Assembly (NCBI GenBank): GCA_964629655.1
Contig: CAZVQU010000002.1
Location: 162,814 to 226,813, forward strand
Direction of reading: 5' to 3'
DNA length: 64,000 nucleotides
Origin: an uncultured Planctomycetia bacterium
GTDB taxonomy: Bacteria; Omnitrophota; Gorgyraeia; Duberdicusellales; 4484-171
A program made the translations under genes and the position numbers. The notes beneath the pieces are model-generated. The model worked only from the letters and a program-made list of their open reading frames with translations. It did not search any database and was not told where the DNA came from. Below, piece after piece: positions 6,142 through 55,876 of the stretch (positions are counted from its first letter, which is position 1; every line of letters begins with the position of its first letter).

Positions 6142-6165
6142 TATAGTATTTTCCTCCGGTACAGG

Positions 6166-6528: not shown

Positions 6529-6545
6529 AACTACTCCTCACTTAA

Positions 6546-6917: not shown

Positions 6918-6942
6918 TTCACTCTCCTTATGATTTATTATA

Positions 6943-18100: not shown

Positions 18101-18343
18101 CTTTTTCATAACAGAGCTGCGGACCTTAATTTTTTCTAAAGCGGCAAGCTCAGCCTTATAGTCAAAAACTTTTTTCCTTAAGGATTGACTCTTATCGGTT
18201 AGGTCTACGATTCTCTTCTCGATAGCCCGGACTTGAACTTTTTCTTTAGTCTTTTTCCTGGCATCTTTGGCATCTTCGCTGTTTAAGGAGTAGACAACAA
18301 GGACTATAGCTGAAGCAATAAGTATCGAGGCAAAAATAATCAT
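15179..18343 (-). CDS. Elongation factor G homolog fused to a ~365-aa N-terminal extension (TM helix + K/E-rich coiled coil)
   Basis: Residues ~366-1054 are a full EF-G ([33 protein letters not shown]-prime, domains II-V). Residues 1-365 are [20 protein letters not shown] (TM) followed by heptad-rich KE repeats. No in-frame ATG/GTG/TTG start precedes the EF-G core. Confidence 0.75.
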
Positions 18344-18371
18344 TATGTCTTAGAAAAGCTTATTCTGATTC

Positions 18372-39453: not shown

Positions 39454-40950
39454 TTAAAAATAAAGATCTCTCTGGCCACCCTTAATTCTCTGATAATATT
39501 CTATAACCTTAGGATAAGTCCTTGGCATAAGAGTTTTGATCTCTGCTAACTCCTTGCGAATAATTTCCTCACCATCTTTTCTAGTTTCGCCAGTAGCAAA
39601 ATCATCTAACCACTCCCTAAAGGTAAGCACAGCATTTAATTTGCAAAGTTTACCCTCCTCTCCGGTCCTTAAAAGTTCCATAATGCACTTGCCGGTTCTT
39701 CCGCAACGATAACCGGCAGTACAAAAAGAAGTGATATGGCCGGCATAAGAGAGTTCCCTTACTACCTCATCCAAGCTCCTGGTATCTCCTAAAAAGAATT
39801 GTTGCCTTTGACCTTCTTGTTCCCTATAGCGGTCACTATAGGCGCCGATACCAATACGTGTAGAGGCATCAGTCTGGGTACAGCCTAAAGGAATAGATTC
39901 TCTTCGCATCTGGGCATTTTCCCGGGCGGTAATAATCATTCCGGCATGAGGAACAGCTAATCTTATAATCGTAATCAGTTTTTTAAAATCCTGATCACTT
40001 ACTTTATAACGAGACTCTTGGGTAAAAGGTGTATTAGCTGCCGGCTCAAGACGCGGAAAAGAAATTGTATGTGGCCCAACACCAAATCTTGCTTCTAGTT
40101 CCCGTGAGTGCAGAAGAAGACTTAAAACTTCAGACTTCCAGTCATATAAACCAAAAAGAACGCCAATGCCAACATCGTCGATACCAGCTTCAAATGCCCG
40201 ATGCATACAATATAATCGCCACTGATAATCAGCTTTTAGAGTTCCTTTGGGATGAAGAGCCTGATAAGTATCGGGATGGTAGGTCTCTTGGAATACCTGA
40301 TAGGTTCCTATTCCGCTGTTTTTCAAAATTTTAAGGTCCTCAATAGATAAAGGCGCAGCATTGACATTAACTCTACGGATCTGACCATAGCCTCTCCTAG
40401 TCTTTGTTTTAACTCCATAGATTGTTTTTATGGTTGAGTTCATATAATCTATATCAGTCTGAGGATGTTCTCCGTAGACTACTACCAAGCGTTTATGTCC
40501 AATCTCACCAGCTAAAACCTCAGTCTCACTCTTGACCTCATTTAAACCAAGCATTCTCCTATGAACATTAAAATTATCTTTTCTAAACCCACAATAAAGA
40601 CAATTATTCACACAAAGATTACTCATATACAAAGGAGCAAAGGTAACTATTCTGTTATCATAAACCTTCTTCTTAACCTCTCCAGCAACCTCAGCCATTC
40701 TTGCCAGCGAATCTCTATCCTCAACACTTAATAATAGCGCTGTTTCTTCAAGCCCTAAGGTCTCAATAGCTAGAGACTTATCAAGAATATCTTTAATTTG
40801 TGCCTTAGATGGTTTAAAATTAACAGCTAAAGCTCTCTCGATTGCTTCTTGATCAATAAAAAGCCTACCCTTATCTAGGTATTTTTCTACCTGCTCTTCT
40901 TTAATCTGGCTCTTTACCCAAGAATCTGGTGAACTTGTCTTTGTAGACAT
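39454..40950 (-). CDS. Radical SAM enzyme of the ThiH/HydG (tyrosine-lyase) family, HydG-like with C-terminal Cys-containing extension
   Basis: LGLEETALLLSVED...YDNRIVTFAPLYMSNLCVNNCLYCGFR (CX3CX2C after a HydG-type ~100-aa N-terminal domain); 498 aa, longer than ThiH; C-terminal FCTAGYRCGRTGKC...LC...LNAVLTF Cys cluster. Confidence 0.6.
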   Translation of the reverse strand: MSTKTSSPDSWVKSQIKEEQVEKYLDKGRLFIDQEAIERALAVNFKPSKAQIKDILDKSLAIETLGLEETALLLSVEDRDSLARMAEVAGEVKKKVYDNRIVTFAPLYMSNLCVNNCLYCGFRKDNFNVHRRMLGLNEVKSETEVLAGEIGHKRLVVVYGEHPQTDIDYMNSTIKTIYGVKTKTRRGYGQIRRVNVNAAPLSIEDLKILKNSGIGTYQVFQETYHPDTYQALHPKGTLKADYQWRLYCMHRAFEAGIDDVGIGVLFGLYDWKSEVLSLLLHSRELEARFGVGPHTISFPRLEPAANTPFTQESRYKVSDQDFKKLITIIRLAVPHAGMIITARENAQMRRESIPLGCTQTDASTRIGIGAYSDRYREQEGQRQQFFLGDTRSLDEVVRELSYAGHITSFCTAGYRCGRTGKCIMELLRTGEEGKLCKLNAVLTFREWLDDFATGETRKDGEEIIRKELAEIKTLMPRTYPKVIEYYQRIKGGQRDLYF

Positions 40951-40953
40951 ATT

Positions 40954-41607
40954 TTATCCTGCTTTGCCCTGTCTTCGTTTAGTAAGAAATATTAAACTCT
41001 CCAACTCAGAAGCCATATCAACATTAGACACTGATACGGCTTGAGGCACCTTTAGCACTATCGGTGCAAAATTTAAAATGCCCTTTATGCCTGAAGAAGC
41101 TAATTCATCAGCAACTCCTTGGGCAGCTTCCGGAGGCGTAGAGATTATTGCAACCTTGATGTTATTCTGCTTGACAATATCCTTTATCTCTTTTATGTGA
41201 TTAATCTTTACCCCTTTTCGGGCCTTACCTATCTTATCTTTGTCAATGTCAAAAGCAAAAGTTATTTTAATGTTGAATTTAGAGAATCCTTCGAAACCTA
41301 AGAGCGCCATACCTAACTTCCCTACGCCGACTATGGCAATCGCCCGCTCTTTGTTTATTCCTAATATATTTTCTATCTCTTCAGTTAACCTGACAACATT
41401 ATAACCAACTCCTCTCTTGCCAAACCCGCCAAAGAAGGAGAGATCTTTTCTAAATTGTGCCGGAGTAACATTAAGGAACTTTGTCAGTTTATTTGAAGAA
41501 ATAATATCTATGCCCTGCTCTTTCAATCTCTTTAAATTCCGCAAATAGAGGCTGAGACGCTTAATCGTCTCCAAAGAAAAGCCATTCTTGTTATTTCTTC
41601 TTTCCAT
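40954..41607 (-). CDS. rex: Redox-sensing transcriptional repressor Rex
   Basis: Winged-helix N-terminus (TIKRLSLYLRNLKRL) plus Rossmann NADH-binding domain (IAIVGVGKLGMALL); 217 aa. Confidence 0.85.
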   Translation of the reverse strand: MERRNNKNGFSLETIKRLSLYLRNLKRLKEQGIDIISSNKLTKFLNVTPAQFRKDLSFFGGFGKRGVGYNVVRLTEEIENILGINKERAIAIVGVGKLGMALLGFEGFSKFNIKITFAFDIDKDKIGKARKGVKINHIKEIKDIVKQNNIKVAIISTPPEAAQGVADELASSGIKGILNFAPIVLKVPQAVSVSNVDMASELESLIFLTKRRQGKAG

Positions 41608-41610
41608 AAC

Positions 41611-42918
41611 CTAATTAACCTCGCTTACACCTAAATCAGTAGGAGCCCGGCCTAAAGATTTAAGTAAAGCTATAGTCTGATCAATTTGCCTATCTATTAA
41701 CTCCTTATCATAAGCCCTATTAGGATAAATTTCATACAGTTTTCGATACTTAACTGGTGTAACGTTAAGCATCAAAGAATTAGCACCCGAAAGTAACCCC
41801 TGCTTGCGCGTAGCCGGCGCATAAGTTTCTAAGGCTGTGGTTACTAGAATTTTGGCTCGCTGGGGATCGATCAGGCGGGCCAAAGCTAAGGCCTTTAAAA
41901 CCAGCTCCTCTGTAGGGCTTTTGAGATCTCCCAAAGCTGTCTCAGGGTGTGGTAGAAATGGTCCAAAAGAGTACATTTCAGCGCTTAATTCTCTAGCCAG
42001 ATGAATATCATTTATAACATCCTGGTTAGTCTGTCCGGGTAGACCAACAAGCGCACCGGTCATGATTAAATAACCCAATAAGTGAGCCTTCCTGATATGC
42101 TCTAATCTGGTTTCCAGTTTCCTCCCGGGATGAAGCCGAGCATAGATATCTGGATTGGAACTCTCAAAACGCATAAGCAGGGCTCTGGCTCCGGCAAGAT
42201 AGAGCTCCTCTAAAGCCTCTAATCCTACTTCACCAAAACTGATACAAATTAATACCGGAACCTTTTCTTTAATTTTCTTTATGGTTATAGCTAGCTTCTC
42301 AACGCTATATCCGGGATCTTCTCCACTCTGTAAGAGGAGAGCCTGAAAACCATATTTCTCTACCGCTTCAACGGCAGTTTCGATAATCTCCTCCTGAGTC
42401 ATCCGGTAACGAGGCAGATCTTTATTGTGGGTTGATATCCCACAATAAGCACACTGCTGCTGACAATGATTTGAAATTTCAATTATTCCGTGGATACAGC
42501 AGGAATTTTTATGGTATTTTTGGCGTAAGAAATTTGCCGATTTATAAAGAAGCTGGCAAGACTGTTGATCGTCTAAGTCAAGCAAATACAATAATTCGTC
42601 TTTCTTTAAGGGAATATTCTCTAGGGCCTTATCTAAAATGAGATGTAGTTTCTTGTCGCTACCCTCTCCTGAGTCCAGCCGGGAGAGACGTAAATCAACA
42701 TCTTGAAGCTCGAAGAATAATTCCTGCCAGGCTGATAAGGTCTCTTTAGCTTCATCTTCTTTAACTTTTTTTATTACAAACCCGCCTTGAGCACAGATAT
42801 AGTCTCCAACGGCAATATCATAAAACTCATTAATTGCTCTTTTCTCTTCACCGAAGTAGTCTACTAAAACCTGTTTTCCCCAAATCTTTTTTACTTTTCC
42901 GGGAATCGCGTAACACAT
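41611..42918 (-). CDS. Fusion protein: HypC/HupF-family domain (N-terminal ~75 aa) + HydE/BioB-like radical SAM enzyme
   Basis: N-terminus MCYAIPGKVKKIWGKQVLVDYFGEEKRAINEFYDIAVGDYICAQGGFVIKKVKEDEAKETL aligns with HypC (MC-x-x-VPG...VGDWVLVHVGFA...EAxxTL). Downstream, HGIIEISNHCQQQCAYCGI (CX3CX2C) and the LLQSGEDP, MRFESSNP, GLPGQT motifs are typical of HydE/biotin-synthase-like enzymes; 435 aa. Confidence 0.7.
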   Translation of the reverse strand: MCYAIPGKVKKIWGKQVLVDYFGEEKRAINEFYDIAVGDYICAQGGFVIKKVKEDEAKETLSAWQELFFELQDVDLRLSRLDSGEGSDKKLHLILDKALENIPLKKDELLYLLDLDDQQSCQLLYKSANFLRQKYHKNSCCIHGIIEISNHCQQQCAYCGISTHNKDLPRYRMTQEEIIETAVEAVEKYGFQALLLQSGEDPGYSVEKLAITIKKIKEKVPVLICISFGEVGLEALEELYLAGARALLMRFESSNPDIYARLHPGRKLETRLEHIRKAHLLGYLIMTGALVGLPGQTNQDVINDIHLARELSAEMYSFGPFLPHPETALGDLKSPTEELVLKALALARLIDPQRAKILVTTALETYAPATRKQGLLSGANSLMLNVTPVKYRKLYEIYPNRAYDKELIDRQIDQTIALLKSLGRAPTDLGVSEVN

Positions 42919-42956
42919 AATAAAACTTAAACCTATTAAAGTTAGTTGAATTATCC

Positions 42957-43199
42957 CTATTCACAATCAAAGGAAACAACTTCTATGCGCGTGCTGGGGA
43001 AAAAAATAATCTCTAAGCTAGCACCTTCAAGTATAGTCCCCTTAGCCAAAAGGTTAAAAGTCTCCCTAAACGACTCTTCTTTAACGCCGGTAAGCTCTCC
43101 GATCTTTAACCTTAACTTAGTTATATTCTTTGCCCCTTCTTCTTCGGCATGCTTAACTATGCCTTTAATTACTGGTTCTATTAAGTGAGTCTCATGCAT
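42957..43199 (-). CDS. HypA-like nickel-insertion protein, truncated (Ni-binding N-domain only, zinc finger missing)
   Basis: MHETHLIEPVIKGIVKHAEEEGAKNITKLRLKIGELTGV... aligns with HypA (MHE Ni-binding motif) but ends after 80 aa with a single Cys; no CxxC...CxxC. Confidence 0.6.
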   Translation of the reverse strand: MHETHLIEPVIKGIVKHAEEEGAKNITKLRLKIGELTGVKEESFRETFNLLAKGTILEGASLEIIFFPSTRIEVVSFDCE

Positions 43200-43653
43200 T
43201 GACTACCTCCAAAATATTTCCTGACACCTCATCTAATACCGCTTTAAGCTCCTCTGACATCTCTGAACCTAGTTCAATACTTTGAGGCTGAACCCCAAGC
43301 ATATAGATATTCGCCTCTGTCTCTTTGGTTAAATAATCCATAAACATTACCGGAGAGACATCGTGAGTAGTAAATCCACACCTTGCTATATCTTCTCCCT
43401 TTAAAATCTCGCATTCACCAGGATTCTTGCCTAGATGAACAGCATCAACAATTAAAACCGTATCGGGGTTTTCTTTGGCGATTTTACCCAGATAATTCTC
43501 AGGAGCAGTCCCGCCGTCTAAACAGATAACCTTAGCCTCATTCTTTATCTTTTCAACTAGTAAAGGTCCGAAGCCATCATCCCCGCGGATAATGTTTCCA
43601 ATACCAATAATAATAACCTTTCCCTTGATAATATCTTTCAAATTAGTTTGCAT
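43192..43653 (-). CDS. Hydrogenase maturation endopeptidase (HycI/HyaD family)
   Basis: IIGIGNIIRGDDGFGPLLVEKI...LDGGTAPEN...VLIVDAVHLG; 153 aa. Confidence 0.8.
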   Translation of the reverse strand: MQTNLKDIIKGKVIIIGIGNIIRGDDGFGPLLVEKIKNEAKVICLDGGTAPENYLGKIAKENPDTVLIVDAVHLGKNPGECEILKGEDIARCGFTTHDVSPVMFMDYLTKETEANIYMLGVQPQSIELGSEMSEELKAVLDEVSGNILEVVNA

Positions 43654-43666
43654 TGTAATTACGCGG

Positions 43667-44272
43667 TCAGGTAGTTTCCCTTCTGCAGCTAGCGCAAAGA
43701 ATTTTTACTCGGTCGGAACGTCCTTGGTCAGCTAAGGCCGATATGATATTCTGATCTATAATGCCTAAGCGCTTGAGACGAGGAAGATATAGCGTTGGGC
43801 TGGAAAAACTAAGCTCTCCTATCCTTTTAACAATCCACTCTAGATGGTCACGGCAAGCAATAGCTTCGCCACAAATCTCACAGAGTTGCAACTCTTTCTC
43901 TATACGCTCGTCAGACTTACTGCGATCAAAAAAGGAAAGCTCCCAATCATTAGATAATTTAATACCCTGATTATCGGCAATACAGGCAGCCTCGCATTGA
44001 CCGCAGAATATACAGGTATCAGTATAGTGAATCATGACCCTTCGCGGATCACTCTTACCGTCAATAAGATCTAAACAATCAATCGCCTCTACCGGACAAA
44101 CCTCTTTACAAGCAGTACAGCCTACACACTTTTCCTCGTTAAACTTAGGCTGCCCTCTAAAATTAGGGTGAGGCTGGTGTGGCTGGATAGGAAACTTTGA
44201 AGTATAAGGCCCTTTTATAAGAGCTTTTATGGCTTCAATTAATTCTCTGATCTTTGGTAACCGTATTTGCAT
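43667..44272 (-). CDS. NuoI/MbhN-like 2x[4Fe-4S] ferredoxin subunit with Cys-rich C-terminal extension
   Basis: CVGCTACKEVCP and CIFCGQCEAACI motifs; extra CEICGEAIAC...CASC at the C-terminus; 201 aa. Confidence 0.7.
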   Translation of the reverse strand: MQIRLPKIRELIEAIKALIKGPYTSKFPIQPHQPHPNFRGQPKFNEEKCVGCTACKEVCPVEAIDCLDLIDGKSDPRRVMIHYTDTCIFCGQCEAACIADNQGIKLSNDWELSFFDRSKSDERIEKELQLCEICGEAIACRDHLEWIVKRIGELSFSSPTLYLPRLKRLGIIDQNIISALADQGRSDRVKILCASCRRETT

Positions 44273-44294
44273 CTTCTGACCTCAAACTCCTAAG

Positions 44295-44630
44295 CTAGAC
44301 TTCTCCCTCTTTATCTTCTAGATACTTATCGACAACGCTCTCTTTGCTAAGCTTCACCCCTGCCCTATGTGCACCTCTGGCTATAGCATGGGCAGCCACC
44401 GGAGAGGTTAATAACAAAAATATCATACATAAAAGTGCTTTCATTCCGGCAGCTGTAGGACCAACAACAATAAATGTCCCGAATAGAATACTGCAAGTGC
44501 CTAAAGTAACGCACTTTGTTGCAGCTTGGAGACGATTATATACATCAGGAAGACGTACCAGGCCTAAAACACCGAAAAGATTAAAAGCTAATCCTAAACC
44601 GATAAATGTCAAACCGATAATGCTACTCAT
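44295..44630 (-). CDS. Mrp/Mnh antiporter subunit G-like membrane protein (MbhC-like)
   Basis: 111 aa, 3 TM; LVRLPDVYNRLQAATK signature of MnhG/PhaG. Confidence 0.65.
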   Translation of the reverse strand: MSSIIGLTFIGLGLAFNLFGVLGLVRLPDVYNRLQAATKCVTLGTCSILFGTFIVVGPTAAGMKALLCMIFLLLTSPVAAHAIARGAHRAGVKLSKESVVDKYLEDKEGEV

Positions 44631-45009
44631 CGAACCCTCTTCCTTCTAAGTATTTAGAAAGCGCTAAAGTACTTATAAAACTCTGCAAGGCCCAGGCTAT
44701 TCCGATATCAATATACCAAGATCTCCCGGTAGAAATGGTCAGTATTGCGCACAAACCAGCAATCATAATACCCAAAATATCAATTGCCACTACACGGTCA
44801 GCACCAGTCGGCCCCTTGTAAATACGATAGAGACATAAAAAACAGGCTAGGATAAGTATGTAGCGGGCCCTTCCTACAAACCCGATGAAGGGAAGATCGG
44901 AACAAAAAAGAAAAGGAAGCGGCCGGATTATTATTAAACCTACGATCCCTCCCAAAACAATTGCGCCAATAAACCATTTAGTTCTTTTCATCTTAACCTC
45001 TCTAGTCAA
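44623..45009 (-). CDS. Mrp/Mnh antiporter subunit F-like membrane protein (MbhB-like)
   Basis: 128 aa, 3 TM, MrpF-like. Confidence 0.55.
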   Translation of the reverse strand: MTREVKMKRTKWFIGAIVLGGIVGLIIIRPLPFLFCSDLPFIGFVGRARYILILACFLCLYRIYKGPTGADRVVAIDILGIMIAGLCAILTISTGRSWYIDIGIAWALQSFISTLALSKYLEGRGFDE

Positions 45010-45499
45010 AAATCTTTTTTAGTATTTTTTCAAAGCGTTGGACAATAATTTTTGTAGCGCCTTCGGTATCTTTTGCTCTTACATTAATCCAGTGTATATA
45101 TAAAACACCACTATCCTTATCTATATCCACACTCATAGTGCCGGGGGTCAAGGTTATAGAATTAGCTAAAAAAGTAAGAGCAGTATCGCTCTTTAGGCTT
45201 GTCTTCACTTTAACAATTCCCGGTTTTATCGGTAAATCAGGATGCAATACGCGATAAGCAACATCAACATTTGCTTTAATAAGCTCCCATAAAAATACCG
45301 GTAAATAATGGGCAACGAAATACCAGTACCGCCAAGGATGCTTTAAGACATGCGGACGGGTAAGGAATAAATCTCCGGTTAGAATAGCTACAAAAGCTGC
45401 CACAAAAATTCCAGTTATAAGGTGCTGGGAATCGGGAACCCAGCTTAAAAGACACCAGCCTAAAAATGCTACCAGAAAAAGTATTATCCTACTTTTCAT
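45002..45499 (-). CDS. Mrp/Mnh antiporter subunit E-like protein (MbhA-like)
   Basis: 165 aa; LWELIKANVDVAYRVL...TLTPGTMSVDID MnhE signature. Confidence 0.6.
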   Translation of the reverse strand: MKSRIILFLVAFLGWCLLSWVPDSQHLITGIFVAAFVAILTGDLFLTRPHVLKHPWRYWYFVAHYLPVFLWELIKANVDVAYRVLHPDLPIKPGIVKVKTSLKSDTALTFLANSITLTPGTMSVDIDKDSGVLYIHWINVRAKDTEGATKIIVQRFEKILKKIFD

Positions 45500-45501
45500 T
45501 T

Positions 45502-47007
45502 CTACCTCACTGCCTCAAAAACTATCGGGCCATATTTTACACCTTTGGTGAGCACATCTGCAGCTGGTTTTAAGAAAACTTCTTTTATTCCCGGCAAAAG
45601 CAAAACTCCTCCGATAATACAGATACCGGCTAAAGCTATCATAGCCAAAACCATAAAAACAGGGACTTCTTTTATTTTGCGCCATTTTTCTCTTAGCTTA
45701 CCAAAAAAACCATACTTCATAACCTTAGTGAATGAAGCTAAAGTCAATACGCTGGCTAAAACTGCCCAAAAAGCATAACCAGGATGGCCAGCGCTTACAG
45801 CAGCAATTATAATCAACAGCTTACTCCAAAATCCATTAAAAGGCGGGATTCCGGCAATAGACATCGAAGCAGTAAGGCCAGTGGTGCTGGTTACCGGCAT
45901 TTTCTCTCTTAACCCACCCATTTTTTGTAAATCCCGGGTTCCTGCAGAATACTCTACTGCTCCCGAATTCAGAAACAAGAGCGACTTAAATATTGAATGG
46001 TTAAAGAGATGAAACAGACCGCCTAATATACCTAACGGTGTGCCTAAGCCAATGCCTAGAACAACATAACCGATTTGACTTATTGAATGGTATGCTAAGA
46101 GACGCTTAAAATCCCACTGACCAATCGCTAAGAATACTCCGATCACCATCGAAATTGCCCCCAGAAACATCAGCAAAGAAGAGATTTTTAAGCTTAATCC
46201 AATCACATTAAAAAATATCCTACAAATAGTATAAACACCTAGAGACTTTATCAGGACTCCTGAAAGCATGGCTGATATCGGAGCCGGTGCCGAAGGATGA
46301 GCATCAGGAAGCCAAGCATGAAAAGGAACTAATGCAGCTTTTAATCCGAAACCCATGATAAATAAAACACTTACTATAAGACCGATATTGCCAACGCCTT
46401 TCTCGGCCAAGATTACTGCCATATCAGCCATATTCAATGTTGAGGTATAACTATACAAGAATACAATTCCGATAAGAATAAAAAGGGAGCCAACAGTACT
46501 CATAACTGCATATTTAAAAGCAGCTTCTAACTCATGACGTTCAGTTCCGAAAGCAACTAAAGCATAGCTTGCTACTGAAGCAATCTCTAAAAATACAAAC
46601 AGGTTAAAAATATCGCCGGTAATAATTACCCCGTTCATTCCGGCTAACATCAAAAGGAATAAGGCATAAAACTTCCACTTAGAAGTATACTTCTCCATGT
46701 AATTTATCGCATAGATCGAGATTATAAAAGCAACTAAGTTTACAGTAACAAGCATGAATGAAGTTAGGCCATCAAGAACTAAGCCTATACCAACCGGCGG
46801 CTTCCAGTAACCAACACTGTAAACTACAGTTCCGTAAGAATTAGATAGCTTTACCGCAAAAATAGAGAGACAAAGTAAGGTAAAAGTAGTCAAGTTACCC
46901 AATGCATCTGGCAACCACTTTATTCTTTTACCAACCAGAGCAATTAAAAAAGCTCCTGATAACGCTATAGCTACAAAAAGAGGTATTATATTAATGCCTG
47001 GAATCAT
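45502..47007 (-). CDS. Proton/sodium-translocating antiporter-like subunit (MrpD/NuoN/MbhH family)
   Basis: 501 aa, ~14 TM, NuoL/M/N-family conserved core. Confidence 0.75.
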   Translation of the reverse strand: MIPGINIIPLFVAIALSGAFLIALVGKRIKWLPDALGNLTTFTLLCLSIFAVKLSNSYGTVVYSVGYWKPPVGIGLVLDGLTSFMLVTVNLVAFIISIYAINYMEKYTSKWKFYALFLLMLAGMNGVIITGDIFNLFVFLEIASVASYALVAFGTERHELEAAFKYAVMSTVGSLFILIGIVFLYSYTSTLNMADMAVILAEKGVGNIGLIVSVLFIMGFGLKAALVPFHAWLPDAHPSAPAPISAMLSGVLIKSLGVYTICRIFFNVIGLSLKISSLLMFLGAISMVIGVFLAIGQWDFKRLLAYHSISQIGYVVLGIGLGTPLGILGGLFHLFNHSIFKSLLFLNSGAVEYSAGTRDLQKMGGLREKMPVTSTTGLTASMSIAGIPPFNGFWSKLLIIIAAVSAGHPGYAFWAVLASVLTLASFTKVMKYGFFGKLREKWRKIKEVPVFMVLAMIALAGICIIGGVLLLPGIKEVFLKPAADVLTKGVKYGPIVFEAVR

Positions 47008-47348
47008 CCTCGCAACTCCCTAATTTTTGTAATATCAAAAGTACCGTATTTTTCATAAATTCTCATAGCAATAGCAACTAATAAAGCTGTAGTCGCTAAA
47101 CCAATAACAATAGCTGTAAGGACCAAAGCGTGCGGTAGGGGATCAACCATAGTAGAAGCAGATATGTCTGCTTGAGATGAGAATATCGGAGCTCTGCCGC
47201 CGATACGATAGGCTACCAAGATAAAAAAGAGATTAACAGCATACTCGCATATAATAATCCCCACAATAATCTTAATAATATTACGCTTTCGTAAAATACA
47301 ATATAGCCCTACGCAAAAAAGCACTAAGCAAAGAAAATATATCATCAT
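47004..47348 (-). CDS. MrpC/NuoK-like small membrane subunit
   Basis: 114 aa, 3 TM. Confidence 0.6.
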   Translation of the reverse strand: MMIYFLCLVLFCVGLYCILRKRNIIKIIVGIIICEYAVNLFFILVAYRIGGRAPIFSSQADISASTMVDPLPHALVLTAIVIGLATTALLVAIAMRIYEKYGTFDITKIRELRG

Positions 47349-47797
47349 TGTTTACTCTCCGATTCCAATTTTACTAAGACCAAGGCAACAAATATTGCAA
47401 ACAGTCCGGCACCAACCTTAAGACTAATAGCTATATTGCAAAGAGGGATAATCCCGGCACTAAATAACTCATAAGGACTTCCTTTAGTCATGAAGTTTAA
47501 GAAAAAATATCCTCCGGTAAAACCTAGCAAAGCTATAGCTAAAAACATTATTGCTCCGGCGTTCTCTAAAAATGAGACCATTCCTTTAGGGAATTTCTTC
47601 AAAGCAACCTCCTTGCCGTAAGCTAACATAAGATGGATGAAGGAAAGGGCAATGATAACCCCTCCGGCAAATCCTCCACCGGGAGATAAGTGACCATGCG
47701 TGAGAATATAAATACCGTAGAGCAATATCAAGCCTATTGTAAGACGGGTAATAGTCTTAACAATTACTGACATACCTTTGTCGTGTTCTCTACTCAT
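47345..47797 (-). CDS. MrpB/MnhB-like membrane subunit
   Basis: HGHLSPGGGFAGGVIIALSFI motif typical of MrpB; 150 aa. Confidence 0.65.
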   Translation of the reverse strand: MSREHDKGMSVIVKTITRLTIGLILLYGIYILTHGHLSPGGGFAGGVIIALSFIHLMLAYGKEVALKKFPKGMVSFLENAGAIMFLAIALLGFTGGYFFLNFMTKGSPYELFSAGIIPLCNIAISLKVGAGLFAIFVALVLVKLESESKQ

Positions 47798-48335
47798 CTT
47801 CTTCTATGACCTCATCTTGTTTTTTTCTGCCGATTTTACGCACAACAGCCAAAACTCCGATTACAGCAGTGAATAGCACTGTGGCCTCACCTAAAGTATC
47901 ATAGGCTCTAAAATCTAATATTACCGAAGAAACAACATTAGCTGCACCGGTCTGGCTTAGCCCCTTAGCAAGATATATTTTGGCAACTTTCATAATTGGA
48001 TAACCAAAACTAGGCAATTCCCTTAAAGCCTTGATAACGACAAATAAGAATATGGCGATAAAGCTGAGAGTAATAAGTGTATTTAGAAACCATCTGCCAG
48101 TAGTAGCGAAAGGTAAATCTTTCTTCAAGGTCGCTCGAATCAAAATCATCAAACACAATATCTCAACTACAAGCTGGGTAATTGCTACATCCGGTGCTTT
48201 TAAAATTAAAAAGACCATAGAAAGTGCTATGCCCACTGCACCAACGGTTACCACCGAAGAAAGTAAATCCTTCACCTCGATAGCAATTACTGCACCGATG
48301 ATCATAAATATTAGAAGAATGTATAGCTCAATCAT
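47790..48335 (-). CDS. MnhB-domain (DUF4040) membrane subunit (MbhD/E-like); start placed at internal ATG 48335
   Basis: ANVVSSVILDFRAYDTLGEATVLFTAVIGV MnhB-domain signature. The ORF-track start at 48389 overlaps the upstream gene by 49 nt, whereas the ATG at 48335 lies 5 nt after the upstream stop. Confidence 0.55.
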   Translation of the reverse strand: MIELYILLIFMIIGAVIAIEVKDLLSSVVTVGAVGIALSMVFLILKAPDVAITQLVVEILCLMILIRATLKKDLPFATTGRWFLNTLITLSFIAIFLFVVIKALRELPSFGYPIMKVAKIYLAKGLSQTGAANVVSSVILDFRAYDTLGEATVLFTAVIGVLAVVRKIGRKKQDEVIEEDE

Positions 48336-48340
48336 AAGAC

Positions 48341-49996
48341 CTACCGCAACAGAATATAGAATATTATCGCCATACCTAAAAGGCACCAAGCCATGTAGGT
48401 AGGAAGTATCCCATTGTGAATGAAACGCAATACCTTGTTAAAACCAAAAGTTATCTTCGAACCAACCTCGTAGACATCAAAGACCTTCTTCTTGGCTAAT
48501 TTGTATATAGCTTTAAGGAAACCGAACTCTTGAATCGTATGATAGAAGTCAATGCCGGAGACTCGCATATCAGGATGCTTTTCTAAAAACTCTCCTCCGA
48601 CGAAACTTTCGGTCTCTCTTGTCTTAGTCGCCTTACCAAGAAGATAGATTACCATACCAATAATAATTCCGATGACTATTAAAACTGTAGCTAAACCAGC
48701 ATCCCAAACCCCAGTGAATCCAACTCCCCCTCCTAAACTAGGGAAGACAAACATTTTAAGCGGAACTGTGAGAGCAAAGACTCCAAAAACAATACAAAGT
48801 ATAGCTAAAAAGCATTGAGGAATCCACATACTCGGACCAACATCTCTTAAAACCTTGCCGGCAACTCCTGATTCGCAAGAAGGCTGGCCCAAGAATACAG
48901 CATGAATTAACTTCATAAAACTAGCTAAGGTAAGAGCGCTACCAAACATAGCCGCAACCAACCAAACTATCCAGAGATATCCTCCACCCTTAGCAGTCTC
49001 GATTATGCCCTGATAAATCATCCACTTCGAAGCAAAGCCATTAAAAGGCGGAACCCCGGAAATTGCTAAAGACGCTATAAGAAAGGTAACGAATGTAATT
49101 GGCATAGCTTTAGCTAAACCACCTAATTTTCCCAAATCTGTAGTCCCGGCCTTCTTCTCTACTGAGCCGCCGGAAAAGAATAAACAGGATTTATAAATTG
49201 CATGATTTAACATGTGAAATAGACCACCAGCAATTCCAATTGGATTTCCGGTTCCAATACCTAAGACCATATATCCAACCTGGCTAACAGCATGGTATCC
49301 TAAGAGCCTCTTTAAATCGTGTTGAATTAGAGCCATCATAACTGCAGCTACGATCGTAATGCTGCCGACTACCATCAAAAAAGTATTCATGCCGTTGTCC
49401 ATCTGAAAGATATTCAACGATAATCTAGCCAAGAAATAAATACCAAGAAGCTTATCCAAAGAGGCTGGTAGAAAAGCAGTGACTGGTGTCGGTCCATCTT
49501 CGGCAGCATCAGGAACCCAGGTATGAAAAGGCATAGCTCCGGCCTTAGCAAAGGCACCGGCTGCCAGGTACAAATAAGCCAAGACTGCTACGTGAGTATT
49601 CAAAGGTATACTCATCTTATCAATCTGGAAATTCTTGGTTAATGCCCAGATAAAAGCTACCCCCAAAAGCATTAGGGCGTCGGTTCCACCAATTATAATA
49701 AAAGCTTTCTTTGCTGTAGCTTGAGTCTGAGCCTTTTTCCCAAAACCAATTAAAAGATACAAAAGCATACCCAAGAAACCCCAGAAGACCATAAACAGAA
49801 TAATATTGTTGGAAAAAACAGCGCCTAAAGAAGCTAAAAGGGTAAGAACTATATATAGGTAATAACGAATTAGCTCCTTGCCTCTCTTCATAAAACCTAC
49901 TGAATAGATAATCGTCAGTAGTGAGAATATTCCAATAAATATCCCTACAAATATAGAAAGTTTATCGAATTTGAAAAATTGTTCAATCAAGCTCAT
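48341..49996 (-). CDS. MrpA/NuoL-like large antiporter-type membrane subunit
   Basis: 551 aa, ~16 TM, NuoL-family core (WVPDAAEDGPTPVTAF...). Confidence 0.75.
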   Translation of the reverse strand: MSLIEQFFKFDKLSIFVGIFIGIFSLLTIIYSVGFMKRGKELIRYYLYIVLTLLASLGAVFSNNIILFMVFWGFLGMLLYLLIGFGKKAQTQATAKKAFIIIGGTDALMLLGVAFIWALTKNFQIDKMSIPLNTHVAVLAYLYLAAGAFAKAGAMPFHTWVPDAAEDGPTPVTAFLPASLDKLLGIYFLARLSLNIFQMDNGMNTFLMVVGSITIVAAVMMALIQHDLKRLLGYHAVSQVGYMVLGIGTGNPIGIAGGLFHMLNHAIYKSCLFFSGGSVEKKAGTTDLGKLGGLAKAMPITFVTFLIASLAISGVPPFNGFASKWMIYQGIIETAKGGGYLWIVWLVAAMFGSALTLASFMKLIHAVFLGQPSCESGVAGKVLRDVGPSMWIPQCFLAILCIVFGVFALTVPLKMFVFPSLGGGVGFTGVWDAGLATVLIVIGIIIGMVIYLLGKATKTRETESFVGGEFLEKHPDMRVSGIDFYHTIQEFGFLKAIYKLAKKKVFDVYEVGSKITFGFNKVLRFIHNGILPTYMAWCLLGMAIIFYILLR

Positions 49997-51177
49997 TTAA
50001 TACCTAATTTACTCTTTACTTGTGCAGTCTTCTCTTGTGAGAGCCGTATTAGATCTTCTCCGTTGTAAATCTTCTTCCCTTTAGTATTACGTACAGCCAT
50101 TCTCTCGGTACAGCAATAACAAGGGTCAATAGCTGCAAAGATTATAGTTGCGTCAGATATAGTCTGGCCAACAACAGTTGATTTATAAGTTGGTAAATTC
50201 ATAAAAGTTGGCGCTCTAACCTTATGACGAGCCGGTCGGTTAGTGCCGTCACTCTTCACATAATGGAAACACTCTCCTCTTGGCGCTTCAATCTGGCCAA
50301 TACCTTCTCCGGGAGGAATGCTCTTAATTTTAGCGTCGATCTCACCTTTAGGAAGGTTCAAGAGACAGTGTTTTATTATTTTTATAGATTCAAAGGTCTC
50401 CAAAACTCTTACTACTAACTTATCAAAGACATCACCATTGGAAGTTACAATCATATCCCAGTCTAACTCCTGGTAAGCTCCATAAGGACAATCTTTTCGC
50501 AAGTCCTTAGCTACGCCTGATGCTCTTGAGGTCGGACCCAGAGCCGAATACCTTATAGCGTCTTCTTTGGTAAGTACGCCTATTCCTTTAGTCCGGGCAT
50601 GCAACACCGGATCATCAATAACTGCCTTTTTAAGCATTATCAATGTCGGTATAATTGAATCTATTTTCTTCAAAACTGTCGGTATGTCATCTGCTTTTAT
50701 GTCTCTTCTTACTCCTCCGGGTTTAAACATAGCGTAATTATTTCTATTTCCTGATAGAATTTCCATAGCATCTAGTATTTCTTCTCTTAACTTCCAAGCC
50801 CACATGTATACTGTATTATACCCTAAGAAGTGTCCTGCTAAGCCCAACCAAAGAAGATGGGAGTGTATCCTCTCACCCTCAGCAATTATAGTTCGGATAT
50901 ACTTGGCCCGCTCGGGTACCTCCAAAGAAATAACATCCTCAACCGCCCTGGTATAAGCAAAAGGGTGGCTAGTAGAACAAATACCGCAAATTCTCTCAAC
51001 CAGAAAAGTTGATTGGTCAAAGGTTTTGCGTTCGGAAAGTTTTTCTATGCCCCGATGGTTATAGCCTACTTCAACCTCAACAGCGACAATCTTTTCACCC
51101 TCAACAGTAAGCGTAAAAAACTCCGGTTCTTCCTGCAAAGGATGATAAGGTCCTATCGGTACTATTGTTCTTGCCAT
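49993..51177 (-). CDS. Group 4 (energy-converting, membrane-bound) [NiFe] hydrogenase catalytic large subunit (MbhL/EchE/HycE-like)
   Basis: N-terminal L1 motif ERICGICSTSH and C-terminal L2 motif AIDPCYCCTERM, the four Ni-Fe-ligating cysteines absent from NuoD; 394 aa. Confidence 0.85.
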   Translation of the reverse strand: MARTIVPIGPYHPLQEEPEFFTLTVEGEKIVAVEVEVGYNHRGIEKLSERKTFDQSTFLVERICGICSTSHPFAYTRAVEDVISLEVPERAKYIRTIIAEGERIHSHLLWLGLAGHFLGYNTVYMWAWKLREEILDAMEILSGNRNNYAMFKPGGVRRDIKADDIPTVLKKIDSIIPTLIMLKKAVIDDPVLHARTKGIGVLTKEDAIRYSALGPTSRASGVAKDLRKDCPYGAYQELDWDMIVTSNGDVFDKLVVRVLETFESIKIIKHCLLNLPKGEIDAKIKSIPPGEGIGQIEAPRGECFHYVKSDGTNRPARHKVRAPTFMNLPTYKSTVVGQTISDATIIFAAIDPCYCCTERMAVRNTKGKKIYNGEDLIRLSQEKTAQVKSKLGIK

Positions 51178-51653
51178 TATACTCCTCTATCTCTAATTGC
51201 TTTCCCATCCCACTCTTTGTAGTCTTTACGTAAAGGATAAGAATCTTTCGGCCACTCATCAGGTAAAAGAAGTTTTCTTAAATCAGGATGGCCCTTAAAA
51301 TTAATTCCCAACATCTCAGTAATCTCCCGTTCAATCCAATTTGCCGCTTCAAATGAAGGCGTAAGCGAGTCTATCTCTAGCTTTGGCTTGGCTAACTTTA
51401 CTCTTAAAGAAATTACTAGATTTATATCGTCAAAGGTAAAATGATATAAGATCTCCATATGAGAACGGGCATCAACGCCGGATGCAATACTAAACCTGGC
51501 CTTTAAGTTTTTAAAAATATATTCTGCAACCTTAACAAGCGAAGAAGGCTTAATCTCGATATATACCCGAGTAGAAGACTTATCAACAAGATCAATAATG
51601 TCCTCCTTAAATTTCTGGTTAATATCTCCTAAAACGCCACTTCTGTCCATCAT
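51177..51653 (-). CDS. NuoC/MbhK-like subunit of group 4 hydrogenase
   Basis: 158 aa; NuoC-family fold (EREITEMLGINFKGHPDLRKLLLPDEW). Confidence 0.7.
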   Translation of the reverse strand: MMDRSGVLGDINQKFKEDIIDLVDKSSTRVYIEIKPSSLVKVAEYIFKNLKARFSIASGVDARSHMEILYHFTFDDINLVISLRVKLAKPKLEIDSLTPSFEAANWIEREITEMLGINFKGHPDLRKLLLPDEWPKDSYPLRKDYKEWDGKAIRDRGV

Positions 51654-52090
51654 TTCCCCTTCTTCTTGATTGTACCTTGTACCTTTCCGATTAGTTTAAC
51701 TACACCGGCAATAATAGCCTCTGGCTTAGGTGGACATCCCGGAATGTAAACATCCACCGGAATAATCTTATCTATCGGAACCGGACAATTGTAGCTATGT
51801 ATAAACATACCCCTAGACAAAGAGCACTCTCCGATTGCCACCACTAAACAAGGTTTAGGCACCTGATCATATAATCTCTTGACTCGCTCCATTGATTTTC
51901 TATTAGCTGAACCAGTAACCAAGAGCACATCAGCATGCCTTATGCTCCCGGCCAAAATCATGCCAAACCTCTCGATATCAAACCTGGGAGTAAGGCAATC
52001 CAATATCTCGATATCGCAATTATTGCAGCTGCCGGTAGCAAGATGAAAGACCCAGGGTGATTTTAATAATGCTTTTAACTTTACACTCAT
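51650..52090 (-). CDS. [NiFe] hydrogenase small subunit of NuoB type (MbhJ/EchC/HycG-like), proximal [4Fe-4S]
   Basis: GSCNNCDIE ... GECS ... GCPP cysteine pattern of NuoB-like subunits; 146 aa. Confidence 0.8.
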   Translation of the reverse strand: MSVKLKALLKSPWVFHLATGSCNNCDIEILDCLTPRFDIERFGMILAGSIRHADVLLVTGSANRKSMERVKRLYDQVPKPCLVVAIGECSLSRGMFIHSYNCPVPIDKIIPVDVYIPGCPPKPEAIIAGVVKLIGKVQGTIKKKGK

Positions 52091-52091
52091 A

Positions 52092-53015
52092 TTACTTTCC
52101 GATTAATGCTAAAGCAACTGCCAATGCGGCGATTATGGTCATCGGGCCCCAGAAAAACCGCATTGCCTGATCAATCCTTACCCGAGGATTGGTATTTCTA
52201 ATAACTGTTATGAGAGCAACTATGCCCACATACTTTAATATTCCAAAAAGTAAGTGTATCCCGTCAAACCTTAAACCGCCCATAAGAAGAATCATTAAAA
52301 AAAACGGCAAGACAAATAAAAGCATATTTTTAGTGAGTCTGTAGATAGCCAGTCCTGTTCCTGAATATTCGATTAGCGGACCGCCGACTATCTCGGTTTC
52401 AGCCTCAGGAATATCAAAGGGAACTAAAGCTAATTTAGCCTGCACACACATTATAAGCACGATGAAAGCTAATATCCCTGATAAATTTCCCAAGATTACT
52501 CCATTTTGAGCCTGGGCAGTTATGATTTCCCCTAAGCGTATAGAAAAGTTAGATTTTATAACCGGAACTAATACTGCCAAAACAAAGGGAAGCTCATAAC
52601 TCAAGATTAGTTTCATCTCCCGAGATGCCCCCAAGCTCGCTAAGGGATTACGAGAAGCAAAACCACCAATAATAATACTCATTGAAGGGATAGTTAATAA
52701 ATATAAAACTACTATTAAATCGCCAAGGAAAGTCTTACCGGGATTAATATTGTTCAGCCACAGGAGAGTAGATACTAAGATTACACCAGCAAGCCCAACA
52801 ACCGGAGCCATAAGAAAGGTCGACTTTGACGAACCGACCGGTACAAGATTCTCTTTCCCAAGAAGCTTTACAATGTCTATTAAGGGCTGCAGAATCGGTG
52901 GTCCCTTCCGATACTGAACCCGGGCAGTAACTTTACGGTCTATCCAACTAGCCAGCAACCCAATAACCGCTGTTGCCAGAAAACCAAATACTAAAAAATA
53001 GAATAAATAAATCAT
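52092..53015 (-). CDS. NuoH/MbhM/HycD-like membrane subunit
   Basis: 307 aa, 8 TM, NuoH-family. Confidence 0.75.
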   Translation of the reverse strand: MIYLFYFLVFGFLATAVIGLLASWIDRKVTARVQYRKGPPILQPLIDIVKLLGKENLVPVGSSKSTFLMAPVVGLAGVILVSTLLWLNNINPGKTFLGDLIVVLYLLTIPSMSIIIGGFASRNPLASLGASREMKLILSYELPFVLAVLVPVIKSNFSIRLGEIITAQAQNGVILGNLSGILAFIVLIMCVQAKLALVPFDIPEAETEIVGGPLIEYSGTGLAIYRLTKNMLLFVLPFFLMILLMGGLRFDGIHLLFGILKYVGIVALITVIRNTNPRVRIDQAMRFFWGPMTIIAALAVALALIGK

Positions 53016-53578
53016 GCCCTGTCTCTTTCCCAGTGAGTTGAATGAACTATCAAATTATCACCGACTAAAAATGTATTTTCGTCAAGCTCAACGCTTCCTT
53101 CTTTTAAACTTAAAGCTCCATGAGGGCAACTCTTTATACATAGAGGTTCACTCTTGGCCTCTCTTCTGTCTAAACAAAAATCACAATTATGAATCAAGTA
53201 AGGCACATGCTCAGGATATATAGTGCCATAGGGACAAGCATGGGAACAAGATTTACAACTTACACAACGCATATTATGACGTATTAACAGTTTATTTTTA
53301 TCTTCTTGCTGTTCTAAGGCATCGGCTGGACAAGAGTCAACGCAGTGAGGCTCCTCGCACCGACGACAGACAAGAGCATAGGTAGCAAGCTCAGCCACCG
53401 AGATAATACCATTATTCACCGGGCTCTGAGTGTGGTAATAATAACTGCATTCAAGCACGCACTCTTTACATTCACCAGAAGCACAAAGGTCTAAGTCAAC
53501 GAATAGCCTCCTATCCTTTGATTTTTTAGCATTTACGTTTAACTTGCCTTGATGTAATTGTTCTGCGCTTGAACTCAT
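53012..53578 (-). CDS. HycB-like polyferredoxin (four [4Fe-4S]-binding Cys motifs)
   Basis: CASGECKECVLEC, CRRCEEPHCVDSCP, CVSCKSCSHACP, CDFC...CIKSCP; 188 aa. Confidence 0.75.
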   Translation of the reverse strand: MSSSAEQLHQGKLNVNAKKSKDRRLFVDLDLCASGECKECVLECSYYYHTQSPVNNGIISVAELATYALVCRRCEEPHCVDSCPADALEQQEDKNKLLIRHNMRCVSCKSCSHACPYGTIYPEHVPYLIHNCDFCLDRREAKSEPLCIKSCPHGALSLKEGSVELDENTFLVGDNLIVHSTHWERDRA

Positions 53579-53579
53579 T

Positions 53580-54404
53580 TTAATCCCAAATTTCGTGAAA
53601 GTTCTTTATCTTATCGTAGGTAAAAACCGGACCATCTTTGCAAGCATAGTAGATTCCGATTCGACAATGCCCACACTTACCAATACCACAAGACATGTTC
53701 TTCTCCATCGAAAGGTAGATATTCTCATCGACAAAGCCCATCTCGAGGAGTTTCTTGGTGGCAAATTTCATCATTATCGGCGGCCCACAAACAACAGCAA
53801 TGCCTTTTCCGCAATCCATGCCTAAATCATCTAATATGGTAGTGACAACACCAACATTACCATTCCACTGGCTATCGCCCTTATCTACAGTAAGCTTTAA
53901 GTCTAAATCATCCCGCTGGGCCCATTCGCCCATCTCGCCTCTATAGACTAATTCTTGAGAAGTCTTACAACCACCTCTAAAAATCAGCTTTTTAAACTCA
54001 CTGCTCCTATGAAAAAGTGCATACATAAGACTACGCAGAGGTGCAAAACCGCACCCTCCTCCAACAACCAAAACTTCTTTTCCTTTAAACTCATCTAAGG
54101 GGTATCCTTGCCCCATCGGGCCCCTTACGCCAATAATATCTCCTTTCTTTAGCTGATGAATCTTCTCAGTAACTTTGCCAACCCTCATCACAGTAACTTC
54201 CATTAAGTCCTTTACCGTAGATTTTGAAGACGGAGTAAAAGGAGCCTCTCCTACCCCAGGGATAGTTACCTCTATAAACTGACCGGTAGCAAAACCGATC
54301 GGTTCCTGTGGCTTAAACTTAATAGTCTTTATGGTAGGAGTCTCCTCGATAACTTCCACAATCTCAGCTTTAATCGATCGATAAGGATTTTTACAATTAA
54401 TCAT
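53580..54404 (-). CDS. FAD/NAD(P)-binding oxidoreductase with C-terminal [2Fe-2S] (AsrB / sulfhydrogenase gamma / PyrK family)
   Basis: FNR-like fold (RFTP... VVGGGCGFAPLRSL) and C-terminal CGIGKCGHCRIG cluster; 274 aa. Confidence 0.7.
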   Translation of the reverse strand: MINCKNPYRSIKAEIVEVIEETPTIKTIKFKPQEPIGFATGQFIEVTIPGVGEAPFTPSSKSTVKDLMEVTVMRVGKVTEKIHQLKKGDIIGVRGPMGQGYPLDEFKGKEVLVVGGGCGFAPLRSLMYALFHRSSEFKKLIFRGGCKTSQELVYRGEMGEWAQRDDLDLKLTVDKGDSQWNGNVGVVTTILDDLGMDCGKGIAVVCGPPIMMKFATKKLLEMGFVDENIYLSMEKNMSCGIGKCGHCRIGIYYACKDGPVFTYDKIKNFHEIWD

Positions 54405-55422
54405 TGGCTACTAGCTTATTTAATACTTTCCTAATATCTATCTTGGCCGGACAAGCCGAAATGCAACGACCACAGCCAGTACAGGCATAAACACCAGCAA
54501 CTTTAGGAAAAAAATCAAACTTCTTTTCAAATCTATTTCGCAGTCGCATCCAGAGTTTTTCCCGGGGATTAGCTCCGCCAGCAACTCTAGCAAAGTCCTT
54601 TATCATGCATGAATCCCAAATTCGCAGGCGAGCCATCTTTTTCTCGTCTTTCTGATCATACAAAAGAAAACAATGGCAAGTAGGGCAAATTACATTACAG
54701 GCTCCGCATTCAACGCAGGTTTGGGCTTCGTCTTTCCAGATGTTAGCATCATAATTCTTCTCAATAATGCCTTCAAAACTATCTTGCACAGGAATTTTAT
54801 TAGTTTTAATATTCTCATCTACTGCGCTTACTACCTCAAGCCGTTGCCCATCTCTGGCTTTAACTTCTTCCTTACCAGCCTCACTAAATAATGATGAATT
54901 TTTGCTGATCAGGGCCTCTCCCTTCCCAGAACCAGACTCAACAGCAAAACCACCTTTAACTTCAGATAAATTAAGGTCAAAATATTTTTGGGGATATGGC
55001 TTAAGGCCTAAGGCCAAACAAAAACAAGTATCAATCGCACAGGTACAATCTGCAGAAATAATAAGATTTTCTTCTCGAGGTTTATTGTAGAAAGGTTCCG
55101 GGCAATCTTGATTTTGGAAGACATAATCCTGAACTTTAAAACCTTTTAAGTCGCAGGCTTTAACACCAACCACAGCTAAAGGCTTATCGCCAGAACGAGA
55201 AACATCGTCTTTGAATCCTTCAGCAACTACTTCTCTTGCTCGGAAAAAAAATGACTTCAGAGGCTCTAAAGCTCTTACCTCGCCAATTACAACATCGTCA
55301 CCAAAAGAATCATACCTTTGATAAAGACGCTGTTCGCCTTTTTTTACCGGTAAGCAAACAGTATAGTCATTCTTTAAATTATCTAGAAATACAGCGAAAT
55401 CGCTTAATGAGATGTAATGCAT
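54397..55422 (-). CDS. Iron-sulfur subunit of AsrA / sulfhydrogenase beta type (2x CxxCxxCxxxCP)
   Basis: CVECGACNVICPTC and CTGCGRCISACP; 341 aa; first gene of the hydrogenase operon. Confidence 0.65.
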   Translation of the reverse strand: MHYISLSDFAVFLDNLKNDYTVCLPVKKGEQRLYQRYDSFGDDVVIGEVRALEPLKSFFFRAREVVAEGFKDDVSRSGDKPLAVVGVKACDLKGFKVQDYVFQNQDCPEPFYNKPREENLIISADCTCAIDTCFCLALGLKPYPQKYFDLNLSEVKGGFAVESGSGKGEALISKNSSLFSEAGKEEVKARDGQRLEVVSAVDENIKTNKIPVQDSFEGIIEKNYDANIWKDEAQTCVECGACNVICPTCHCFLLYDQKDEKKMARLRIWDSCMIKDFARVAGGANPREKLWMRLRNRFEKKFDFFPKVAGVYACTGCGRCISACPAKIDIRKVLNKLVAND

Positions 55423-55481
55423 CCAGCCCCGAATTTTAAGTTGTTAATTGTGGTAAGTTACCTAAAAGGTACTTTAATACT

Positions 55482-55499
55482 TTGTGAATAAAATCACAA
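55482..55499. promoter_or_regulatory. Rex operator (TTGTGAA-N4-ATCACAA) in the promoter of the hydrogenase operon
   Basis: TTGTGAATAAAATCACAA, 17/18 match to the palindromic Rex consensus TTGTGAAnnnnTTCACAA, 60 bp upstream of the first operon gene. It overlaps a putative minus-strand -35/-10 (TTGTGA-17-TAAAGT). rex is encoded in the same locus. Confidence 0.7.
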
Positions 55500-55588
55500 T
55501 CAAGATAATTAATCGTATCATACAAGAATAAACTTGTCAAACAATTTTTATGTTTTTGATTGCGTTAGGTCTGTCTTAATCTAGCAGA

Positions 55589-55876
55589 TTACCCTTTAAC
55601 ATCTACATATTTAGCTAAGGTAGGGTTGAATTTGCTCAAAAAAATCATCATTCCCCAAAGTAAAGTTGTCGCTACGACAATAAGCACTCCCAGAACTAAA
55701 TCCTTAGGCGTGTTTGCAGAAACAAGGAACAACTCGCCATTGTAAAGGTGATCTATTACTCCGAACATGGCTCCTCCGTAAAACATCAGGGTCAACCACC
55801 AAACTTTGATACTCCTGTTCCTCTTCCAAGTTAATGAAGTAACTGCGGCTGCAGCTATTGATACAACATAACACAT
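55589..55876 (-). CDS. Small hypothetical membrane protein (3 TM)
   Basis: 95 aa hydrophobic ORF. Confidence 0.45.
   Translation of the reverse strand: MCYVVSIAAAAVTSLTWKRNRSIKVWWLTLMFYGGAMFGVIDHLYNGELFLVSANTPKDLVLGVLIVVATTLLWGMMIFLSKFNPTLAKYVDVKG

Follow-up and report, generated by a model that had tools for sequence, protein, structure and literature searches.

The locus raises the question of which regulator, acting at which site, governs a long hydrogenase operon that carries a gene for the redox-sensing repressor Rex among its own maturation genes. Ahead of the first gene of this operon (gene 1), the window (the whole stretch of DNA that was analysed, 64 kb in length) contains an 18-bp inverted repeat at positions 55482..55499, which reads TTGTGAATAAAATCACAA on the plus strand and TTGTGATTTTATTCACAA in the sense of the operon, i.e. 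on the minus strand. Compared with the Rex consensus TTGTGAANNNNTTCACAA (TTGTGAA-N4-TTCACAA; Ravcheev et al. 2012, as quoted in PMC6391272), 13 of the 14 specified bases of TTGTGAATAAAATCACAA agreed; the single mismatch affects position 7/12 of the repeat, where the motif derived from the relatives of this locus holds little information. The repeat is intergenic, 59 nt separate it from the ATG (55422) of gene 1, and the same operon contains a cognate rex gene. An earlier note on this DNA had given both the coordinates and the sequence of the palindrome exactly. The match of 17 in 18 positions that it reported concerned a real palindrome, but was reached by treating the four N positions as matches (13/14 if restricted to specified bases), and its placement upstream of the first operon gene was borne out, with a measured gap of 59 nt instead of the reported 60 bp. 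Its assignment of the palindrome to the Rex type was upheld by the consensus match as well as by the linkage of box and rex, which is conserved across many related genomes. According to the evidence detailed below, the palindrome is in all probability the operator of the Rex protein encoded in the same operon; this putative function, binding included, is predicted from sequence.

Within the complete 64-kb window, the operator was the sole match to the consensus with at most one mismatch; dinucleotide-preserving shuffles of the window yielded a mean of 0.01 such sites (one shuffle in 100 contained one). Based on a weight matrix built from the relatives, the operator reached 25.7 bits versus 8.8 bits for the next best site of the window. 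At a tolerance of up to three mismatches the count of Rex matches in the window was not above chance: the candidates for second Rex sites at 37166 and 59516 (three mismatches each) were rejected because of their low weight-matrix scores (only 5.6 and 7.8 bits, respectively), and the latter falls within an open reading frame (58906-59682). Rex boxes inside the operon, including positions before the maturation genes, were found neither in the window nor in the related loci L165 and L167.

The operon consists of 20 packed genes on the minus strand (from 55422 down to 39454) that overlap or leave gaps of no more than some tens of bases; the closest named relatives of the encoded proteins stem from Candidatus Omnitrophota MAGs. 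Based on Pfam and NCBIfam, the first three genes (53012..55422) constitute an “oxidoreductase” module: a 341-aa FeS protein (Fer4_22; best NCBIfam matches to sulfhydrogenase beta/AsrA), a 274-aa FAD/NAD(P)-binding protein similar to sulfhydrogenase gamma/AsrB, and a 188-aa 4Fe-4S ferredoxin, with all NCBIfam matches of the three being below the equivalog cut-offs. The subsequent block (43192..53015) encodes the core of an Mbh-Mrp-type group 4 [NiFe] hydrogenase, as recognized from the translations, Pfam and the Pfam labels of the L165/L167 orthologues; it comprises NuoH-, NuoB- and NuoC-like subunits, Mrp antiporter-like subunits, a 4Fe-4S subunit, the [NiFe] large subunit (49993-51177; metal-binding motifs RICGICSTSH and DPCYCC in the translation) and the HycI protease (43192-43653). 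The maturation block around rex (39454..43199; Pfam, NCBIfam) has a gene order conserved in L165-L168. It starts with a truncated HypA of 80 aa (42957-43199) whose match to the HypA model is limited to positions 1-68 of 116 and scores below the cut-off, and it continues with a HypC::HydE-like radical-SAM fusion (41611-42918; 237.9 bits with the HydE model at a cut-off of 254.6). The rex gene (40954-41607) follows and is located, as the earlier note had described, between this fusion and a HydG-type radical-SAM gene (39454-40950) that passes the equivalog cut-off of HydG, a maturase of [FeFe] hydrogenases (451 versus 312 bits). The orthologues of the HypA-like reading frame in L165 and L167 likewise have a length of 80 aa, and the order of the genes from 39454 to 42918 recurs in two other species (L165, 8690-12154; L167, 8681-12160). 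HypD, HypE and HypF were not seen in the operon; the HypC::HydE-like fusion together with HydG may supply the CO/CN ligands of a [NiFe] site by an alternative route. A literature search on HydG/HydE with HypC and Mbh retrieved nothing on the fusion.

Matches to internal promoters (43 versus 40.7) and internal terminators (11 versus 14.1) in the operon were at shuffle expectation; in consequence, a single transcript is plausible. As rex and the maturation genes belong to the same packed unit, a single operator plausibly governs the whole set including rex, which is presumed to be autoregulated as a member of the operon. The joint control of hydrogenase and maturation genes, suggested before, agrees with the arrangement of all these genes in one tightly packed unit behind the operator. 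Two observations concern the surroundings: in L165, a bAvd gene and an RVT_1 reverse transcriptase (16479-18413), the signature of a diversity-generating retroelement, are located a few kb 3' of the operon, and in the window four consecutive reading frames of 120-123 aa (5770-7314, minus strand), which look like tandem paralogues, lie beside a 910-aa reading frame (7329-10061).

The rex product (217 aa; 40954..41607, minus strand) shows the architecture of an N-terminal winged-helix (PF06971) and a C-terminal Rossmann domain (PF02629). Its scores exceeded the cut-offs of several NCBIfam Rex models, among them NF003995 (257.9 bits, cut-off 126) and NF003993 (239.6 bits, cut-off 217), and it matched T-Rex (1XCB) with E = 1e-46 and Thermotoga maritima Rex (5ZZ5/7WB3) with E = 7e-45. 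The DNA-contacting residues of T. maritima Rex (R12, S33, Q46, R48, K49, S52, G58, R60, G61 and Y64; PMC8836258) are all identical in the window protein (R17, S38, Q51, R53, K54, S57, G63, R65, G66 and Y69). The latter also keeps the NAD(H)-site residues, i.e. the GxGxxG motif (G94-V-G-K-L-G99), D120, K125 and D197, all retained by at least 116 of the 120 orthologues; the counterparts of the three charged residues in T. maritima Rex are D115 (binding the adenine ribose), K120 and D191. At the position of the nicotinamide-stacking tyrosine (Y98 in T-Rex, Y100 in T. maritima Rex), the window protein possesses Phe105, by which the phenyl ring is retained and the hydroxyl group lost. Phenylalanine is present at this site in 119/120 in-operon Rex orthologues, tyrosine in 49/49 “upstream-type” Rex proteins (41-46% identical), which are encoded directly 5' of gene 1 in other lineages. 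In T. maritima Rex, the tyrosine is hydrogen-bonded to the ribose of NAD+ or, when NADH is bound, to Asp191, and is part of the NADH-dependent switch (PMC8836258); in consequence, proteins with phenylalanine in its place may sense the redox state with a different strength or specificity. It is conceivable, if rather doubtful, that the in-operon Rex represents a distinct Phe-type subfamily with cofactor sensing altered relative to canonical Rex, which would serve as a dedicated local regulator and tie synthesis and HydG/HydE-assisted maturation of an NAD(P)H-linked, ion-translocating hydrogenase to the pyridine-nucleotide redox state; according to this reading, the in-operon rex is always wedged between the HypC::HydE-like radical-SAM fusion and HydG. 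If it were true, NADH disposal would be the role of the “oxidoreductase” module in this widespread hydrogenase type.

The location of the operator relative to the promoter was deduced from a consensus scan of the window and an alignment of the upstream region with five relatives at 70-90% protein identity (alignment A2). The predicted promoter on the minus strand, TTGACA-17-TGnTACGAT, is composed of the -35 hexamer TTGACA (55535..55540) and an extended -10 element (55512..55520: TG at 55520-55519, A, and TACGAT at 55517-55512); it scored 10/12 plus the TG extension and conforms to a conserved sigma-70 promoter of the extended -10 type (TTGACA, spacer of 16-18 nt, TGnTATAAT-like). The -35 hexamer, the TG, the -10 positions T1, A2, A5 and T6 and the Rex box were invariant in the alignment; the spacer, the leader and everything 5' of the -35 hexamer were divergent. 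Placed by promoter geometry only, the predicted transcription start is 6-8 nt past the -10 element (55504..55506, minus strand). The remainder of the 5' untranslated leader (55423..55481, minus strand) includes a G-rich ribosome-binding stretch (GGGG at 55427-55430), and the AGG/GGG stretch ahead of the ATG is conserved in the alignment. Directly following the box, the triplet AGT (55479-55481, minus strand; TTCACAA-AGT) is invariant in all six aligned sequences beyond the canonical 18 bp; it may extend the operator or belong to the initial transcribed sequence. The upstream gene varies among loci (95-aa reading frame, CbiM or TatC): in the window, a predicted membrane protein of 95 aa (55589-55876, minus strand), which has no match in Pfam or NCBIfam, is encoded just 5' of the promoter; in the closest relatives (L001-L003, L172) it stays beside the operon, and more distant relatives have CbiM or TatC in its place, indicating that it is not part of the operon.

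Of 59 distinct box contexts, 50 had a promoter of at least 10/12 shortly ahead of the box, most of these promoters ending -1 to 20 nt before it. The TG extension occurred in 46/59 contexts and a perfect TTGACA upstream of the box in about 50/59, the latter being far beyond chance. On account of this conserved upstream promoter, the box of the window is positioned at roughly +8 to +25, 12 bp past the -10 element and not over the -35 hexamer (in loci of arrangement C, described below, the box abuts or overlaps the -10 element). The earlier note had instead proposed the promoter TTGTGA-17-TAAAGT, in which the Rex operator would overlap the -35 hexamer and the spacer; on this reading, bound Rex would exclude RNA polymerase there. 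Indeed, both hexamers are present at the 17-nt spacing (55499-55494 and 55476-55471), and repressor sites over -35 elements are common; this promoter, however, scored 8/12 and thus below the threshold of the scan, and its -10 hexamer is unconserved, being replaced in close relatives by TATCGA, TATAAA, TATAGG, CAAAGA or TGCCAT. The A2 and T6 of the TAAAGT position were kept in only 7/59 contexts as opposed to 50/59 contexts with the upstream promoter of at least 10/12, a comparison in which the upstream model was picked from many positions and the model with the box half-site from three. The overlap of box and -35 hexamer is therefore improbable, and the box is placed just downstream of the -10 element and the predicted start.

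The comparative set comprised 160 loci with a gene 1 homologue from genome and metagenome collections; the box count was restricted to 120 loci with at least 950 nt of upstream sequence, with 120 coding stretches of equal length as controls. In 53/120 loci the 950 nt ahead of gene 1 contained the box (up to two mismatches), which none of the 120 controls did. In a count of all inverted 5-mer dyads (gaps of 0-12) made without prior motif, TTGTG-N8-CACAA ranked first (18/81 dereplicated clusters versus 0 in the controls), and the next-ranked dyads, TTTGT-N10 and TGTGA-N6, overlap it. The dyads GAGAG-N9-CTCTC, AGAGC-N7 and TCAAG-N4 were rejected as a second operator, as they fall within the 3' end of the coding sequence of upstream-type rex. 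No recognisable box was present within 950 nt in 41/81 dereplicated relatives; control of this kind is, in consequence, not universal for this operon type. The same 18-mer was found at the orthologous position in L089, L161/L162, L169, L170 and L172; it recurs identically in relatives at only 64-90% protein identity, with diverging flanks.

The loci with a box fall into three arrangements: in arrangement A (the window type) the box is located 44-90 nt ahead of gene 1 with no rex upstream, arrangement B has the order rex, box (at -184), gene 1, and arrangement C the order box, rex, gene 1. A box with up to three mismatches was present in 24/29 clusters with rex directly upstream. The whole layout of arrangement A, i.e. 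box, promoter, operon and the 3' block HycI-HypA-HypC::rSAM-Rex-HydG, was confirmed on single contigs in two further species (L169 with L165, L170 with L167), the Rex proteins of which are 74% and 72% identical to that of the window, respectively; as the fetched flanks covered 10 kb, the position of rex at the 3' end of type A operons was established for these two species by separate look-ups. The bins of closely related rex-box-gene 1 loci (L006, L007, L010, L011, L012 and others) carry the labels Atribacterota, Planctomycetia, Latescibacterota, Spirochaetota and Omnitrophota; such disparate labels suggest either mis-binning or lateral transfer of the operon.

The same data bear on the question whether another regulator, e.g. 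of the CRP/FNR family, binds a dyad of similar sequence, with the nearby rex being coincidental. The 5+6+5 core of the box, TGTGA-N6-TCACA, is identical to the consensus core of CRP sites; since it is common to CRP and Rex sites, the core does not discriminate between them. At the position 5' of TGTGA, the CRP consensus has A; the conserved motif extends to TTGTGA...TCACAA, with a Rex-like T at this position in 92% of the sites. Furthermore, the box moves with rex in the three gene arrangements, including loci in which it lies directly upstream of rex, and among the genes of the operon and of its conserved neighbourhood none of the CRP type was recognized. Recognition by a regulator other than Rex is accordingly quite improbable. 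Even less credence is given to a role of the palindrome at the RNA level, with a hairpin of the 5' leader affecting stability or translation: with a start at about 55505 the box would be transcribed, and a 5-bp stem of -5.1 kcal/mol is possible, yet this stem is weak, in type C loci the box is at the -10 element and would be largely untranscribed, and among 83 distinct sites 135 one-sided changes that break a pair were counted against 13 compensatory ones, which indicates that the bases and not their pairing are conserved. An origin by chance within AT-rich intergenic DNA, for which the 40% G+C of the window and the frequency of short intergenic palindromes might speak, is effectively refuted by the shuffles (1/100), the locus counts (53/120 versus 0/120), the top-ranked dyad and the invariant 18-mer amid divergent flanks.

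From the operator, the promoter and the gene content we infer Rex binding, repression, a response to NADH, a single transcript and the direction of the reaction, which would combine as follows. A Rex dimer would bind the two TTGTGA half-sites via its winged-helix domains and, residing at about +8 to +25, block open-complex formation or promoter escape. Rex proteins are documented to bind the operator in the NAD+-bound or apo form; NADH tilts the C-terminal helix, draws the recognition helices together and frees the DNA (PMC8836258). By analogy, the window protein is expected to respond to the NADH/NAD+ ratio: with a rising ratio, NADH would occupy the Rossmann domain, and the dimer would close and leave the DNA. 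Release of Rex would allow transcription of the whole 16-kb unit, from the oxidoreductase module and the Mbh-Mrp [NiFe] hydrogenase through HycI, HypA, the HypC::HydE-like fusion, rex and HydG, and the presence of rex within the unit would create a negative autoregulatory loop. Excess reducing equivalents would thereby induce an H2-evolving sink; induction by NADH fits this role, given that the products of the first two genes constitute a flavin/FeS module that binds NAD(P).

As Omnitrophota and their neighbours are uncultured, almost nothing is known of the regulation of their energy metabolism. The locus provides a well-supported pair of cis-element and regulator that is conserved across many environmental genomes, and the predicted promoter and operator are directly testable in vitro or in a heterologous host. 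The locus also connects an Mbh-Mrp-oxidoreductase hydrogenase to the NADH/NAD+ pool, which supports a role of the enzyme as an NADH-responsive H2 valve, and the HypC::HydE-like and HydG maturation genes are predicted to be co-regulated with the enzyme. General Rex biology remains unchanged: the control of hydrogenase genes and hydG is established in Caldicellulosiruptor, Thermotoga and clostridia.

Among the known systems, the Rex proteins of Streptomyces coelicolor, Thermus and Bacillus with their ROP operators (structures 1XCB, 3IKT and 2VT2) resemble the window system as homodimers of winged-helix (wHTH) and Rossmann domains, the palindromic operators of which overlap or follow respiratory or fermentative promoters. 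The Streptomyces rex gene is likewise autoregulated in its operon. The targets of these proteins are cytochrome bd, NADH dehydrogenase and heme genes and, unlike in the window, no hydrogenase. The Rex regulon of T. maritima comprises 12 operons, including those of hydrogen production, and the structure of the Rex-NAD+-operator complex has been determined (7WB3; PMC8836258). Protein architecture, dyad spacing and DNA contacts (Arg48/Lys49 corresponding to R53/K54, the wing Arg-Gly, and Tyr64 corresponding to Y69) are shared with the window; the proteins differ in the residue stacking on the nicotinamide (Tyr100 versus Phe105), and Thermotogales operators, e.g. TTTGAGAAATTTATCACAAA, are more degenerate than that of the window. 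In Caldicellulosiruptor bescii, Rex has been demonstrated by EMSA to bind upstream of a 19-gene Ech [NiFe] operon, [FeFe] hydrogenase genes, hydG and rex (PMC6391272). C. bescii and C. saccharolyticus resemble the window in the HydG maturase being part of the regulon, the autoregulation of rex and the relief of repression by NADH (PMC6391272). [quoted passage not shown] Mbh-Mrp-oxidoreductase group 4 [NiFe] hydrogenases have been reported from Elusimicrobia, Saganbacteria and Thermococcales (bioRxiv 10.1101/765248) and share the Mbh core, the Mrp antiporter-like subunits and the oxidoreductase module with the window. In that report the function of the oxidoreductase module is stated as unknown; neither a Rex operator nor rex is described for this operon type, Rex being mentioned only beside [FeFe] group C hydrogenases (bioRxiv 10.1101/765248). 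Our literature searches retrieved no paper linking Rex to hydrogenases of Omnitrophota and nothing relevant on Rex with Mbh/Mrp. In view of the C. bescii and T. maritima precedents, the control of a hydrogenase operon by a Rex operator ahead of it is of an already known kind; new are the lineage (Omnitrophota and neighbours), the type of hydrogenase, the embedding of rex and HydG in the operon, and the putative Phe-type Rex subfamily.
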